Source: Methanosarcinales archaeon
GTDB taxonomy: Archaea > Halobacteriota > Syntropharchaeia > Alkanophagales > Methanospirareceae
Assembly (NCBI GenBank): GCA_003661125.1
Contig: QMVO01000038.1
Location: forward strand, 1 to 10,479
Direction: 5' to 3'
DNA: 10,479 nt
Translations under genes and position numbers: made by a program
The notes under the pieces: generated by a model
Database searches by the model: none
Seen by the model: the letters and a program-made list of their open reading frames with translations, nothing else
Told to the model about the DNA's origin: nothing
In this document: piece after piece, positions 369-9,500 of the stretch
How the letters are laid out: each line of letters opens with the position of its first letter
Position numbering within the stretch: position 1 is the stretch's first letter

Positions 369-554
369 ATGAAACATTATTGTCCGCTAAAGCGTAAACG
401 ATACAAACGCAATGAGTTACTGCAAATCTGTCCAGGATGTGATTTCCCAGCACGCCATTCTTGCCCCGGAATTGTTCTCTTTAAGGAAAGCGAAAGGCAA
501 GAATATTTGGCATTAATGAATTTAGATTTCATATTAAAACGCTTTACGAAGTAA
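369..554 (+). CDS. small (61 aa) basic zinc-ribbon-like protein (CPLK...CPGC...SCPG), function unknown
   Basis: The ORF is preceded by GGTAGTAGGAGG (350-362), with AGGAGG 6 nt before the ATG. There are four Cys in two CxxC-like knuckles. It is compact and lies directly upstream of the tRNA. Confidence 0.5.
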   Translation: MKHYCPLKRKRYKRNELLQICPGCDFPARHSCPGIVLFKESERQEYLALMNLDFILKRFTK

Positions 555-568
555 ATAAATAGAAATTT

Positions 569-641
569 AGCCTGGTAGTGTAGCGGACAATCATTTGAGG
601 CTTTGGACCTCAAGACGGTGGTTCAAATCCACCCCAGGCTA
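569..641 (+). tRNA. tRNA-Gln (anticodon UUG), archaeal-type identity elements (A1:U72, A73), CCA not encoded
   Basis: Folded by hand. Acceptor stem AGCCTGG/CCAGGCT (7 bp). U8 A9 present. D-arm GTG..CAT with A14, G18 and G19. Anticodon stem TGAGG/CCTCA with loop CTTTGGA, so U33 and anticodon TTG. Variable loop AGAC. T-arm GGTGG-TTCAAAT-CCACC. Discriminator A at 641, followed by atc, so no CCA. Confidence 0.8.
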
Positions 642-644
642 ATC

Positions 645-668
645 TTTTGTAAACGTTCCCTTTTTAGC
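645..668 (+). promoter_or_regulatory. copy A of conserved motif TTTTGTAAACGTTCCCTTTTTAGC; candidate promoter (upstream element plus TATA-like T5A) for the HicB-like gene
   Basis: One of four same-orientation copies of TTTGTAAACGTYCC(N)TTTTTA. It lies 3 nt after the tRNA and 50 nt before ATG 698. An additional TTTTATTTAA box lies at 682-691. Confidence 0.4.
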
Positions 669-697: not shown

Positions 698-862
698 ATG
701 ACGACTAAAAAAATATCTATTGTTATAGAAAAAGATGAAGACGACGATTTTTTTGTAGCCGAATGTCCATCTCTTCCGGGATGTTATACACAGGGGGAAA
801 CATTGGGTGAAGCTTTGAAAAACATACATGAAGTGATTGAATTGTGTCTTGAAGAAATGTAA
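698..862 (+). CDS. solo HicB-like antitoxin N-domain protein (UPF0150 / RNase-H-like-fold HicB family), 54 aa, no DNA-binding C-domain and no adjacent hicA
   Basis: The ORF is below the length cutoff of the track and was translated by hand: [54 protein letters not shown]. The signature of HicB-family antitoxin N-domains (I.IEKDEDGGYVAE.PDLPGC.TQGDTLEEAL.N..EAIEL.LE) is matched almost position for position. The stop TAA (860-862) lies inside motif copy B. Confidence 0.6.
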
Positions 863-3361: not shown

Positions 3362-4228
3362 ATGGCTGATGCAACAAATTCGTTAGAAGAGTTCTCGAAG
3401 TATGTAGATGCAGAATTGGTAGAACCGTTACGTGCAGTTCTGATAGGCCGTAAAATCGTGCCAGTAACGCCAGAGCATGGACTCGGTGTGTCCGCAGTCG
3501 AATTCCACAAGATAGTGGAGATGGGTGAAGGTGTGGTAACATACAGTTTCTCCGATGCTGGCGAAGACGAAATCAATATTACACCAACCACACTTAAACT
3601 GCCGATACACATAAAAGATTACAGAATAGACCGCAGGCATTACGAATCGTATCGCGAGAAAGGTATAAATATTGATAACAGTACCGCGCTGAGTGCTGCT
3701 TTCGTTGCTGCAAACAAAGAAGATGCGACAATCATTCGTGGCTATGCTGGTGATGGGTCTACATATGATATCAAAGGGCTATATGAAGGTGCCGGCAACA
3801 CATACGCAGGCAGCGATTTTGGTACCGCCGGTAATCCCACGGATGCAGTCGCAGGAGCAATGGATGCATTGGAACAGGACGATGTCCCCGTTTCAAGCTG
3901 CAATCTCATTCTACATCCGACACAGCGAAATGAACTTCGTGCACTTCGGAATAGCTATGGAATACGAGAAGAGCCAGAAGTATTGGAAATGCTGAATGGA
4001 GGGGCAATTTACAGCTCGAAAGCACTCACTGCCGGTACGGGATTGCTCATTCCAACAGTAAATTTGGCAAGACCGTATTTCGACTATTTCCTTGGTGTCG
4101 ATTGGAGGACTGAGCATGGTACAGAAAGCGAGCACCCTGATACAAGCGATTTGCATGGACGTGTATATAGCACAGGCGTATTGAGAATCAAGCATGATGT
4201 AGCGATCTGCACAATCACGGGGATATAA
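3362..4228 (+). CDS. major capsid protein, encapsulin-like (Linocin M18 / family-1 encapsulin shell) HK97 fold
   Basis: 288 aa. Colinear with Thermotoga maritima encapsulin. LIGRKIVPV..HGLGVSAV compares with LYGRKFVDVEGPYGWEYAA. LKLPIHIKDYRIDRRHYESYREKGINIDNSTALSAAFVAANKEDATIIRG compares with [50 protein letters not shown]. The C-terminal NLILHP...YFLGVDWRTEH...RVYSTGVLRI compares with YTLVINT...LILGQDLSIGY...RLFITETFTFQV. The length also matches, and AAAAGGAGGTGA lies upstream. Confidence 0.7.
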   Translation: MADATNSLEEFSKYVDAELVEPLRAVLIGRKIVPVTPEHGLGVSAVEFHKIVEMGEGVVTYSFSDAGEDEINITPTTLKLPIHIKDYRIDRRHYESYREKGINIDNSTALSAAFVAANKEDATIIRGYAGDGSTYDIKGLYEGAGNTYAGSDFGTAGNPTDAVAGAMDALEQDDVPVSSCNLILHPTQRNELRALRNSYGIREEPEVLEMLNGGAIYSSKALTAGTGLLIPTVNLARPYFDYFLGVDWRTEHGTESEHPDTSDLHGRVYSTGVLRIKHDVAICTITGI

Positions 4229-5605: not shown

Positions 5606-6029
5606 ATCTATCTTAGATGGAATCAAGCATATTCTCCAGAATGATGCAGACACAAAAGACGTGATCAAATCCTATTATTATCATCTTCCCGTATCAGGTG
5701 CACGCGACCCTTGCTGCATCCTCGGATATAATATCTCGTTTAATATAGACAAAGAACGTTCTTATCTCAATAGTTCAATACCTGGACGATTCTGGTCTGC
5801 TTCTGTTTCTATTTTACTTTTAGGTAGAGTTTATGAACGTACTCCTTCGCGGTTTGAAGCAATGATAGAAATTCTGGATAAATTACAAGGCGATGCATAT
5901 GAAGCGCTCACGAATGACAAAACACTAAACGGTACAGTCCTCAAGAGTCAACCTGTTTCTATACACAATATCTTCCTCGATGAATACTATGGATATGAGA
6001 TATCTATTGAGATCACAAAATCTGATTAA
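5598..6029 (+). CDS. putative neck / tail-completion protein (position-based), 143 aa
   Basis: The ORF is translationally coupled to the upstream gene. It is the last gene of the + strand neck block before the reverse-strand cassette. I recognise no family. Confidence 0.45.
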   Translation: MIKSILDGIKHILQNDADTKDVIKSYYYHLPVSGARDPCCILGYNISFNIDKERSYLNSSIPGRFWSASVSILLLGRVYERTPSRFEAMIEILDKLQGDAYEALTNDKTLNGTVLKSQPVSIHNIFLDEYYGYEISIEITKSD

Positions 6030-6385
6030 AAGTAGTCTTCAAGTTTCTTATTAATAGCTTTCATTTCTTTTTTATTTTTTATCTCTTCTCTCCACCGCTT
6101 ATTTAGTTTTTCCAATGCACCCGGCATCACGTTTGGCCAGAACATACCGAAAAATGCGAACCCCAAACAGATGAAAATAGTAGCTGGGTCTAAGCCCGAA
6201 TAAATAGCAGTAGGGACATTTGAATACTTTGGGTATTCTCCTCTGCCTTTGAAACTAAGAACCCTCTCATTATACTCAATGTTGATGCCTGATGCTTCCG
6301 CGAGCTTAATTATTTCTTCGTAATTGCCATGCCATGCTTGGAATGTAAGTTCGATCATACGGTCTTCAATCATTTTTCCTATCAT
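6026..6385 (-). CDS. hypothetical 119-aa protein with central hydrophobic segment (ATIFICLGFAFFGMFW), co-oriented and downstream of the RNA ligase gene
   Basis: From the ORF track. Its start context on the reverse strand is AGGAAAAATGATTGAAG. It shares a TTAA overlapping-stop arrangement with the convergent + strand gene at 6026-6029. Confidence 0.45.
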   Translation of the reverse strand: MIGKMIEDRMIELTFQAWHGNYEEIIKLAEASGINIEYNERVLSFKGRGEYPKYSNVPTAIYSGLDPATIFICLGFAFFGMFWPNVMPGALEKLNKRWREEIKNKKEMKAINKKLEDYF

Positions 6386-6477
6386 TTTTTACATTGCCTT
6401 TCAATTCTGCTAAACGACTTTTCCAGAAGTATTCACGAATTTTCATATCGTCTTTATCTACATCTATTTGTCCTTTA

Positions 6478-7608
6478 TCATTTATTTTCATTTTTTATGG
6501 CAAACTCTTCTGACAAATAACTATATATCTTACTTGCTAATTTTTTATCATATTCTTGTGCAAAATACCGCATACAAGTTCTTTTATCGTGAACAATATC
6601 TAAATTTTCTTTCAAATACTTCTCTTTTATCTCCGCTTTAAATCTTTTCTCAAAAGCTACTTCATTCATTATCTTGCGAATCCTCTCTTCTTGTTGTACT
6701 ATATCACTTTCTTGGAACTCTTCTAAAAGCAACGATTTAATCAAATCAAAAGAAGGATTGTCTGTTTCTTCATAGGCGTTTATCACTGTTATTAATATTG
6801 AATGTTTTGGTATTCTATTGTCTTTCCAGTGCACATCCAAAACCAAATCAGGCTTCGCTTTATATTGTATTGCACTTTCTGAGATGACATACCAAACAGT
6901 GCCTTCTATACCTCTTACGATTCCCTCCGTATCCTGAAATATGTTTTCATTAAGCCATTTTCTTAGTGCTTCGTATTCTTCAATGAATTCTATTTTAGAT
7001 GTAAAATTCTTTAAAAGCTTTGCAGTTCTCAATCCATTCAATTTGAGTTCTGTGGGAGGGACTATTTTCTTAGGGAATACACCGAATAGCGCAGCGCAGT
7101 CAAGTAAAGTATCATACTCTACTAATATCTTATTTCTTTTTCCGTATAGTTCAAAGCTGATGTTACATTTATTCTTTAATATTATCTCAGGTATCTCGGG
7201 ATATGTGTCAAGCATTTCGCTCCACAAACTCCGGAAGTTACCAAATCGGGATTCCTCTAACGTTGGTCGTAGTCGTGTTTTATAACTCACAAATTCATTG
7301 CCTTCTGCATCAAAATAAGTATATCCTAAGATATTTGTCCCATCTAACTTTTCATATACTTCTATCCTGTCTACATTTTCAAAATGAATATAATTACCGT
7401 CCCTATCAAAAGGATATACCATCTTTGGTGTAGCCCATACATATTGAGGACATTCTTTATCATTTACATGGGTGATGTAAAGCATCCCATAGGTTGAATG
7501 TCCATCTCGTCTGATATATCCCTTTAATGTATTATTATTAAAGGTATCTCTCACTTCAAACTCTTCTACATTCTTGGAACTGATATTAAAAGGATATTCA
7601 GTCATCAT
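6478..7608 (-). CDS. ATP-dependent RNA ligase-like covalent nucleotidyltransferase (Rnl2/Rnl3-like), 376 aa, with ~50-aa N-terminal extension and ~120-aa helical C-terminal domain
   Basis: Nucleotidyltransferase motifs occur in the canonical order and spacing. Motif I is VYEKLDGTN with K87 (T4 Rnl2 has EKIHGTN; Rnl3 is the KxDGxN type). Motif III is ISFELYGK with E153, 66 aa after motif I. Motif IV is TEGIVRG with E228. Motif V is QYKAK with K250/K252, 22 aa after motif IV. The reverse-strand SD GAGGAG lies 5 nt before ATGATG. Confidence 0.6.
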   Translation of the reverse strand: MMTEYPFNISSKNVEEFEVRDTFNNNTLKGYIRRDGHSTYGMLYITHVNDKECPQYVWATPKMVYPFDRDGNYIHFENVDRIEVYEKLDGTNILGYTYFDAEGNEFVSYKTRLRPTLEESRFGNFRSLWSEMLDTYPEIPEIILKNKCNISFELYGKRNKILVEYDTLLDCAALFGVFPKKIVPPTELKLNGLRTAKLLKNFTSKIEFIEEYEALRKWLNENIFQDTEGIVRGIEGTVWYVISESAIQYKAKPDLVLDVHWKDNRIPKHSILITVINAYEETDNPSFDLIKSLLLEEFQESDIVQQEERIRKIMNEVAFEKRFKAEIKEKYLKENLDIVHDKRTCMRYFAQEYDKKLASKIYSYLSEEFAIKNENK

Positions 7609-7706
7609 TTCTCCTCATTCACTGCCTTGTTCACCACTAATATTTAGTCAGTTAGCATAAAAAGGTTTTCGGTCTTCTGGTTAGAACCATAAGTTCTTAC
7701 TATAAA

Positions 7707-7739
7707 ATTTGTAAACGTCCCCTTTTTATTTCTATTCCG
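7707..7739 (+). promoter_or_regulatory. copy C of conserved motif (ATTTGTAAACGTCCCCTTTTTATTTCTATTCCG); candidate promoter for the major tail gene, in the divergent intergenic region shared with the RNA ligase gene
   Basis: The TATA-like CTTTTTATTT lies ~50 nt upstream of ATG 7780. A leadered transcript would carry the SD AAGGAGGAAG. The 21 nt core is identical to copy B. Confidence 0.4.
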
Positions 7740-7779: not shown

Positions 7780-8694
7780 ATGGCAAAAATGCCGATTTCT
7801 GGTGCGAAGGCGATAGAATACGTCGCCGAGGATTCAATAGGGAGTGGTACTTACGGAGTAACACCAGACAATCCAACGATGAAATGGCTCGGATTAGTAA
7901 ATCCATTCACTCCACACATAGCCAAAGGGTACGAAGAAGTACGTTATCTCGGTGCTTACGATGCAACAGATATGTTGCAAAAAATGCGAAATATGAAAGT
8001 GGATGGAGAACTAACCGCATCACTGACTTACAAACCGCAGGATTGGGATTTCATGCAGTATATCACAGGCAGCACTACCGGTCTATCAGACTCTGTCGAT
8101 TCATTAAGCATCGCGCAGTACACAGATGAGAAATGGATATTGTATAAGGGATGTATGCTCACGAGATGGGAACTGACCTTGCCAAAAGAAGGAATTGCAA
8201 CCGTAGATGTGGATATGACAATAGGAGATGTAGCAGACCCGACTGGCACTGATTTCATAGGTACGGGCTCGCATGCATCAGAGAGTACAGATGACCCGTT
8301 CCTGTGGGAAGACATAACAGGACTTAAGATGGATTCTAATGATCCGCCTACTACAGAGATTGCGCATTCTGTCGGCGATCTGACACTCAGCATAACAAAT
8401 GAAGTCGAATTACCGAAAGATATTAGCTCAACGAAATGGACGCGAGCTGAAGGTGCAGTCGTAAAGAAGAGGGACATATCGGTCTCGATGGAATTGACCT
8501 GGGTTGATATTGATTCCTTTTTCACATTAGTGAAAAACGGCACGAAACAAAATTTGCAGTTCACACTCGGTGGTAAGACATTTACTATTAAGGGACTCAT
8601 TCCGCCTGAATACAATCCAGAGATTACACCCGATAACTTTATTGGTGAGACGGTTACATTCCTAATGGACCAGCCAGACTTGACAATAGCGTAG
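7780..8694 (+). CDS. putative major tail protein, 304 aa
   Basis: A strong SD (AAGGAGG) is present. The ORF is located directly upstream of the G/GT chaperone pair and the tape measure gene, the canonical siphovirus order MTP-G-GT-TMP. Its Thr/Asp/Gly-rich composition suggests a beta-rich protein. Confidence 0.5.
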   Translation: MAKMPISGAKAIEYVAEDSIGSGTYGVTPDNPTMKWLGLVNPFTPHIAKGYEEVRYLGAYDATDMLQKMRNMKVDGELTASLTYKPQDWDFMQYITGSTTGLSDSVDSLSIAQYTDEKWILYKGCMLTRWELTLPKEGIATVDVDMTIGDVADPTGTDFIGTGSHASESTDDPFLWEDITGLKMDSNDPPTTEIAHSVGDLTLSITNEVELPKDISSTKWTRAEGAVVKKRDISVSMELTWVDIDSFFTLVKNGTKQNLQFTLGGKTFTIKGLIPPEYNPEITPDNFIGETVTFLMDQPDLTIA

Positions 8695-9229: not shown

Positions 9230-9476
9230 TCAAATCTTTTCTCCCCAAGCCCGCTGGGCAATATGCTGAAGAAATAGCTCAGTGGCTAAAAGGAAAGAGC
9301 ATAAAAGACGACCGCATAATCGAATACACGCTCATGTCTCATTTCGGCTGGTCGGAGAAGACCTTATATGAGACTTCCCTGAATACTATTCAAAATGCAT
9401 TATTTATTTTAGAACGGATTGCAAAGCACGAACAGTTAATTCTTTCCAGATCGCGTAAAAATAAACAGCATTTGTA
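8807..9476 (+). CDS. predicted G-T fusion product made by -1 programmed ribosomal frameshift at AAG AAA AAG (9215-9223), extending to TAA 9474-9476
   Basis: The -1 frame has a stop at 9136-9138 and is open from 9139 to 9476. It overlaps the last ~30 codons of G and continues 83 codons past the G stop. The heptamer G_AAA_AAG lies at the overlap. This G/GT architecture is conserved in tailed viruses. Confidence 0.45.
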
Positions 9477-9500
9477 AACGTTCTATTTTAAACTTTCTAC
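9468..9500 (+). promoter_or_regulatory. copy D of conserved motif (CATTTGTAAACGTTCTATTTTAAACTTTCTAC); candidate promoter for the tape measure gene; TATA-like TATTTTAAAC centred ~28 nt before ATG 9518 (leaderless geometry)
   Basis: It shares TTTGTAAACGTTC with copy A. There is no SD before ATG 9518. The motif contains the TAA stop of the GT extension. Confidence 0.35.

Follow-up and report, generated by a model that had tools for sequence, protein, structure and literature searches.

An archaeal-type tRNA-Gln(UUG) gene in the head and tail module of a tailed virus with a probable archaeal host

The stretch of DNA analysed here (10,479 nt, hereafter the window) is the head and tail module of a tailed virus, with capsid, tube, scaffold and tape-measure genes. 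Near its left end, on the plus strand, lies an archaeal-type tRNA-Gln(UUG) gene (569..641), called with Rfam RF00005, ARAGORN, an archaeal covariance model (R1, described below) and a column comparison with 58 cellular copies. Downstream follow a solo HicB-like antitoxin-fold protein of 54 aa (698..862, plus strand; Pfam HicB_lk_antitox, E = 1.2e-9; PHROG 497), a ChaB-domain protein with a coiled-coil tail (901-2427), the HK97-fold major capsid protein (3362..4228, plus strand; Pfam Linocin_M18, E = 2.4e-16; PHROG 264), the tail tube (7780-8694) and the tape measure, which runs off the window end. The minus strand carries an ATP-dependent RNA ligase of 376 aa (6478..7608), placed by fold comparison in the Rnl1/Rnl3/Trl1-like group. 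The ORF list holds no HicA gene adjacent to the HicB-like gene, which agrees with an earlier reading of this DNA, made from the sequence only, that a solo antitoxin sits next to the tRNA.

RF00005 matches the window at 569-641 on the plus strand over model positions 1-71 of 71, with 59.9 bits (E = 3.1e-11; the gathering score is 29 bits). These are the coordinates at which the sequence-only reading had placed a tRNA-Gln(UUG) with A1:U72 and A73. ARAGORN also finds one tRNA in the window, a tRNA-Gln with anticodon TTG at 603-605, and its span (568-642) is wider than that of the covariance model by one base per end. The comparison of the two spans points to the U at position -1 (568..568, plus strand): it could form an eighth acceptor pair with the discriminator A641, and this accounts for the extension. 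The canonical register is that of the covariance model, with a 7-bp acceptor stem abutting the T-stem, U8 at 576, A569 as position 1, U640 as position 72 and A641 as discriminator A73. We rejected the ARAGORN register, in which U568:A641 is pair 1:72, because it needs an 8-bp acceptor stem and because RF00005 and R1 both put position 1 at 569. The sequence-only reading had staked its assignment on an A:U first pair, and A569:U640 is the first pair in both models. Of 21 stem pairs, 20 are standard; the sole exception, U13-U22, is also present in cellular homologues. The anticodon loop is CUUUGGA (positions 32-38, with G37 at 606). The gene has no intron and no encoded CCA, as ATC directly follows 641.

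Published identity rules separate the two domains. Bacterial glutamine identity comprises G73, U1-A72, G2-C71, G3-C70, G10, U34-G36, A37 and U38 (PMC9976931), while archaeal GatDE recognises A1-U72 together with a small D-loop (PMC2943598, PMC2811023) and refuses tRNA-Glu owing to its enlarged D-loop (PMC2943598). The viral tRNA has A1:U72, A73, C3:G70, G37 and A38, and agrees with the bacterial set only at G2:C71 and G10. We scanned 185,579 species genomes with the pattern GGTRGTGTAGYGGNNNATCATNNNNNNCTTTG, which describes the viral D-arm and anticodon, fixes 23 of 73 positions and leaves positions 1, 72, 73 and 37 free. It matched 64 genomes, 64/64 archaeal and none bacterial, from Bathyarchaeia, Thermoplasmata, Hydrothermarchaeales, Methanococci, Methanolliviera, one Methanosarcinales, one Methanoregula and others. 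Among the intron-less cellular archaeal copies in register (n = 58), A1:U72 and G37 occur in 58/58 and A73 in 56/58, and positions 32-38 of the anticodon loop are identical to those of the viral tRNA in 58/58. The bacterial-side panel (seven phage tRNA-Gln genes, with hosts in six bacterial orders, plus E. coli) has U1:A72 in 8/8, G73 in 7/8 and A37 in 7/8. These counts bear out the rule given in the sequence-only reading that A1:U72 with A73 marks archaeal tRNA-Gln and U1:A72 with G73 bacterial tRNA-Gln; judged by such sequence comparison, the A1:U72/A73 combination is archaeal-type. Four of the 64 matches (L025, L030, L039 and L073) diverge just past position 37, consistent with canonical 37/38 introns.

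The covariance model R1, built from 35 distinct archaeal tRNA-Gln sequences with the virus left out, scores the viral tRNA at 92.5 bits (E = 1.4e-23), the eight bacterial-side genes at 17-43 bits and two more bacterial-type viral tRNA-Gln genes at 39-40 bits; because the archaeal set was chosen by the viral D-arm pattern, the R1 score and the identities to that set are inflated, whereas the free identity positions (1, 72, 73 and 37) are unaffected by this selection. The D-loop has the length and layout of the archaeal set, and the viral tRNA aligns to R1 without gaps. In the phage collection, an identical search mode returned 331 records covering at least 80% of the query for E. coli tRNA-Gln and 0 for the viral tRNA. 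A close match to a bacterial tRNA-Gln, another outcome that the sequence-only reading had named as fatal to it, is not what these scores give.

A bacteriophage tRNA-Gln could mimic this result if A1:U72 were a register artefact and the true first pair were U568:A641, as in bacteria. The ARAGORN span does yield an outer U:A pair, and one capsid cluster (48% identical; P0052, P0071) is labelled 'Acetivibrionales bacterium' in one metagenome-assembled genome (MAG) and 'Deferribacteraceae bacterium' in another. These two bacterial labels are mutually contradictory, however, and sit on contigs of ~3.9 kb. The shifted register also needs the 8-bp stem that both covariance models avoid by starting at 569, and even then the discriminator would still be A instead of G and position 37 G instead of A. 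Together with a D-arm found in 64 archaeal and 0 bacterial genomes and the gap between 92.5 and 17-43 bits on R1, the register and A73/G37 effectively refute a bacteriophage origin, which we consider barely conceivable.

The viral tRNA stands apart from its cellular counterparts. Its best identity to any cellular copy is 59/73 (Hydrothermarchaeales copies) and its median 56; between one cellular copy and another, the median is 61. The closest cellular copies come from Hydrothermarchaeales, Thermoplasmata and Methanolliviera; the only Methanosarcinales match is 51/73 identical. With a GC content of 52%, it is poorer in GC than any of the 58 cellular copies (53-71%). The virus has changed three columns in which those 58 copies do not vary (C5 to U, G68 to A and G57 to A), giving the virus-specific U5:A68 at 573/636 and A57 at 625 (plus strand; column comparison); C5 is present in all 64 genome matches and the U5 variant in none. 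Relative to the nearest cellular copy (L054) there are 14 differences, 12 of which make up six pairs changed on both sides, all Watson-Crick, with no pair changed on one side only. Six doubly changed pairs that are still Watson-Crick imply that the gene has been selected to fold since the divergence. Such a pattern marks a tRNA that has shifted towards AT within a viral genome, its fold kept under selection, and we consider it highly probable that 569-641 is a maintained archaeal-type tRNA gene. The exact 37-mer of the viral tRNA had no match in IMG/VR, and its U5-type 5' half had none in the JGI metagenome collection. No tRNA was found in ~50 capsid-related loci, so there is no comparative series of viral tRNA-Gln genes.

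Downstream of the tRNA the DNA is clearly viral, and the upstream 568 nt consist of two ORFans (9-347 and 369-554). Among 5.8 billion proteins, ORF 9-347 has no homologue but itself; a look-up with it retrieved no longer contig upstream, and neither assembly extends further. The ENA assembly of the same virus (L001) was rejected as a source of different upstream sequence, as its first 69 nt (1-69) are Illumina Nextera adapter, an assembly artefact.

This position leaves room for a reading in which bases 1-641 are host chromosome, a host tRNA-Gln served as attachment site and the provirus starts directly behind it. Integration into tRNA genes is common among archaeal proviruses (PMC8651126), the contig was binned in an archaeal MAG, and the first clear viral signal, a repeated motif GTAAACGTYCCCTTTTTA, begins just 8 nt past the tRNA. 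Neither assembly reaches farther upstream, and the upstream ORFs lack informative homologues. The ORFan status of ORF 9-347 nevertheless typifies viral or mobile DNA and would be unusual in a neighbour on a chromosome, and the tRNA itself departs from the 58 cellular copies in its GC content and its three changed columns. As U5:A68 spans the 5' and 3' halves, a host/virus hybrid tRNA is unlikely, and the U5 variant is found in neither the 64 genome matches nor the JGI metagenomes. There is no integrase nearby and no att-like repeat, no 12-mer of the tRNA recurs in 12.7 kb, and neither GC nor strand skew shows a break at the tRNA. We therefore regard a host gene at a provirus junction as improbable and treat the tRNA as a probable part of the viral genome.

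The HK97-fold capsid protein is a marker of a tailed virus and ties the element to its relatives. It is identical to RLG34229.1, from a MAG labelled 'Methanosarcinales archaeon', and has a 50%-identical homologue in two assemblies of Methanosalsum natronophilum (order Methanosarcinales), where the gene adjoins a terminase and a Prim-Pol with a domain named for a Methanothermobacter plasmid protein. Further relatives occur on fermentation-metagenome (ENA) and other metagenome contigs. Neither the capsid nor the tube protein matched any of 50,697 phage and archaeal-virus records, and a single-sequence capsid search of IMG/VR gave no confirmed relative. Bin labels are inconsistent within the capsid family, and 'Methanosarcinales' is likewise a bin label; it is likely that viral contigs have been mis-binned into MAGs and HK97 capsids mis-named encapsulins. 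Several members of the capsid cluster are annotated 'encapsulin'.

Two features of the module's gene content were observed alongside. The protein at 901-2427 and its relatives in L008, L010 and L012 are fusions, in which an N-terminal ChaB domain precedes a large head-module protein with a scaffold-like coiled-coil C-terminus, and the fusion gene lies directly upstream of the cement-like and capsid genes, an order conserved across the viral group. Farther downstream, a minus-strand cassette of a 119-aa protein and the ligase (window 6001-7700) has a GC of 0.33, compared with 0.43-0.46 in the flanking head and tail genes; the contrast suggests that the cassette was inserted, in the manner of a moron, between the genes for head completion and those for the tail.

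The ligase had been one of the arguments for an archaeal host in the sequence-only reading, through an Rnl3-like KxDGxN motif. The motif is there (K87-L-D-G-T-N92). By fold comparison the protein is about equally near Rnl3, T4 Rnl1 and fungal Trl1; this comparison is its only placement, as searches of the PDB by single sequence and by profile gave no match. It belongs to a family of >300 metagenomic proteins, almost without Pfam annotation, in which the covalent nucleotidyltransferase motifs are all invariant (alignment A1), and which, from its sequences, may represent an undescribed clade of RNA ligases of phages and archaeal viruses. The family also occurs in large phages with bacterial-type tRNA-Gln; since bacteriophages share it, the ligase is no argument for an archaeal host. 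A GC of ~40%, previously taken to fit a methanogen-like host, does not discriminate between hosts, and we rejected both the ligase and GC content as host evidence.

What remains points the same way. An archaeal host, as proposed from the sequence only, is the best reading given the tRNA identity elements, the Methanosalsum capsid relative, the lack of enrichment in sigma-70-like promoters and a TATA-like box. Whole-window motif counts give 22 sigma-70-like promoters against 27.6 expected and 4 hairpin terminators against 8.1 expected, so neither is enriched. Altogether, an undescribed tailed lineage with an archaeal host is well supported. The host is probably a member or relative of Methanosarcinales, an order that is only suggested: the nearest cellular tRNAs lie outside Methanosarcinales, which leaves the order uncertain. 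More generally, the domain-specific identity elements of a virus-borne tRNA offer a cheap, alignment-free clue to host domain for an uncultivated virus whose proteins lack annotated matches; in this case it supports an archaeal host for a capsid lineage with a wide distribution in methanogenic habitats, one probably mis-binned into bacterial MAGs. Linking viruses to methanogen and ANME hosts through tRNA matches is routine practice (PMC9723712).

The flanks of the tRNA include putative archaeal signals. A candidate TATA-like box, ATATTAAAA, lies at 531..539 on the plus strand (-38 to -30, counted from the mature 5' end of the tRNA), within the 3'-terminal part of ORF 369-554. Bathyarchaeial tRNA-Gln genes have ATATTAAA at the same distance, and most TATA-like boxes with at least 6/8 matches are located at -55 to -35 upstream of cellular copies. 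Alternatively, the tRNA could be co-transcribed with ORF 369-554, a plus-strand ORF from the ORF list that encodes 61 aa, has no family match and ends 14 nt before the tRNA. Directly 3' of the tRNA is a T-rich tract, TCTTTT (643..648, plus strand), possibly an archaeal oligo-T context for termination or processing; a search of 300-1000 turned up no hairpin terminator of the bacterial type.

The repeat search placed the first copy of the 18-nt motif GTAAACGTYCCCTTTTTA at 649..666 on the plus strand, where it may serve as the HicB gene's viral promoter. The motif recurs exactly at 859-876 and 7711-7728, and with 3 mismatches at 9474-9491 (0.01 copies expected by chance). Each of the four copies is 42-69 nt upstream of a gene start: those of HicB, the ChaB-domain protein, the tail tube and the tape measure. 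GTAAACGTYCCCTTTTTA probably acts as a promoter, perhaps a late one, or as another regulatory element specific to the virus. One copy stands between the tRNA and the HicB gene, and none precedes the tRNA itself; the HicB gene is probably a transcription unit separate from the tRNA.

With a probability of about 0.55, we read 569-641 as an intact, functional archaeal-type tRNA-Gln(UUG) of an archaeal tailed virus that adds decoding of CAA. Host RNA polymerase would transcribe it, whether from the tRNA's own TATA-like box ~35 nt upstream or in one transcript with the two small ORFs that precede it. Trimming would then fall to host RNase P and a 3'-end nuclease, and the host CCA-adding enzyme would supply the CCA that the gene does not encode. 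Going by published identity rules, a non-discriminating host GluRS would charge the tRNA with glutamate and GatDE would amidate it to glutamine, GatDE acceptance being expected because A1:U72 and the small D-loop are kept. In Archaea, a viral tRNA-Gln must remain compatible with this two-step GluRS/GatDE route. The product would add decoding capacity for CAA during AT-rich late gene expression.

Supply of the virus's preferred CAA codon would be the simplest benefit, and we put it at about even odds. The viral genes use 66 CAA and 38 CAG codons (63% CAA), and the tape-measure gene 28 and 5. The CAA fraction (0.63) is below those of AAA (0.73) and GAA (0.76), so glutamine is no obvious bottleneck. 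Most tRNA-less relatives prefer CAG, even where GAA and AAA are preferred, and a UUG tRNA thus fits codon supply in a host that perhaps favours CAG. Three relatives with similar CAA usage (L003, L079 and L080) have no tRNA within 10 kb of the capsid gene. Many relatives (L098, L111, L115 and others) strongly favour CAG, with a CAA fraction of 0.09-0.3 despite a preference for GAA and AAA, a skew specific to glutamine.

The gene might instead be a passenger, captured from some archaeon and still intact, with no measurable benefit to the virus. That the tRNA is unique among the relatives and that no glutamine-codon bottleneck is evident would suit this. Six compensated stem changes and the retention of all identity positions, despite ~19% divergence and the shift towards AT, argue for purifying selection, and we think a mere passenger a poor bet.

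The sequence-only reading favoured another role, replacement of a host tRNA-Gln that is depleted or cleaved during infection, over codon usage. In such a counter-defence, a host or resident element would deplete or cleave tRNA-Gln(UUG), for instance with a VapC-, PrrC-, HEPN- or Schlafen-like nuclease, and the virus would replace it, possibly with help from the ligase. Cases are documented, all of them bacterial, in which a phage tRNA rescues infection from a defence that targets tRNAs: the T5 tRNA-Tyr acts against retron-Eco7, T1/T7 tRNA-Lys against PrrC170, and mycobacteriophages carry tRNAs with altered anticodon loops (PMC11555353, PMC10264068). This virus resembles them in having a single, lineage-specific tRNA in a genome that also has RNA-repair and antitoxin-like genes; the folds nearest to its ATP-dependent RNA ligase include the tRNA-repair ligase T4 Rnl1 and the tRNA ligase Trl1. 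In large viral genomes, relatives in the ligase family adjoin genes for RlaP, a metallophosphoesterase and Rnl2-like proteins; on one of these contigs, a tRNA-Lys(UUU) neighbours an Rnl2-like gene. The tRNA, single and absent from ~50 related loci, was by that token acquired in this viral lineage, and its stems are unlike those of all cellular copies.

Several observations speak against counter-defence. The anticodon loop (CUUUGGA) is the same as in 58/58 cellular archaeal copies and so lacks the mutations proposed as the signature of phage tRNAs insensitive to nucleases (PMC10264068). The available 12.7 kb encode no kinase or phosphatase for end healing, and 5.8 kb separate the tRNA from the ligase, which lies on the opposite strand in a low-GC cassette of its own. 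Among 34 viral loci with the ligase family, tRNAs are nearby in only 7, with diverse isotypes and only 2 for Gln. The HicB gene is parted from the tRNA by the repeated promoter-like motif. We know of no archaeal tRNA-Gln nuclease. The preference for replacement over codon usage thus gains no specific support here, given a loop of cellular type, no end-healing enzyme, a separate HicB gene and a match to CAA usage, and we judge counter-defence unlikely. A broader form, in which the tRNA-Gln, the Rnl1/Rnl3-like ligase and the solo HicB together make up a kit against host RNA-targeting immunity (tRNA-Gln depletion or cleavage, HicA-type toxins), seems to us quite unlikely; if true, it would be a first indication that archaea related to methanogens have tRNA-targeting defence and that their viruses evade it by means of tRNAs. 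For the roles of viral tRNAs in Archaea, the gene is a concrete candidate on which codon supply can be weighed against anti-defence.

Returning to the preferred reading of a functional archaeal-type viral tRNA, its closest known counterpart is the cellular archaeal tRNA-Gln(UUG), for example that of Methanothermobacter thermautotrophicus, which was crystallised with GatDE. The two share A1:U72, A73, G37, C32/A38, length and a 4-nt variable loop, as well as a D-arm with G10-U25, U13-U22 and a 9-nt D-loop, and the identity features that GatDE recognises are retained in the viral tRNA (PMC2943598, PMC2811023). They differ in the viral U5:A68 for C5:G68, in A57 for G57 and in five more stem pairs swapped relative to the nearest relative, and the viral copy sits among viral head genes. 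Bacteriophage tRNA-Gln(UUG) genes (T4-like, Listeria A511, Pseudomonas Kaya and others) have the same anticodon, often read as codon supplementation, but U1:A72 in all eight bacterial or phage genes tested, mostly with G73 and A37, and a GCCAAGCGGTAAGGCA-type D-arm.

Virus-borne tRNAs are already known in archaeal tailed viruses, so a single tRNA in one is unsurprising in itself; here the tRNA is in an undescribed viral lineage. Halomagnusvirus HGTV-1 encodes 36 tRNAs, two Rnl2 ligases and RtcB (PMC8651126), and the haloarchaeal Hafunaviridae, Druskaviridae and HGTV-1 are alike in being tailed archaeal viruses with one or more tRNA genes and an RNA ligase (PMC8651126). Unlike them, the present virus has a single tRNA, a likely methanogen-related host, a ligase that is Rnl1/Rnl3/Trl1-like instead of Rnl2, and a capsid without a detectable relative in the 50,697 phage and archaeal-virus records.

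Large viral contigs with the ligase family show a further arrangement (L119 1463-2192; also L119 18398-19108 and L120 5441-6136). A second, Rnl2-like ligase is followed immediately by a tRNA-Lys(UUU), with RlaP, metallophosphoesterase and dual-specificity-phosphatase genes near the pair, and the gene group looks like an RNA-repair module.
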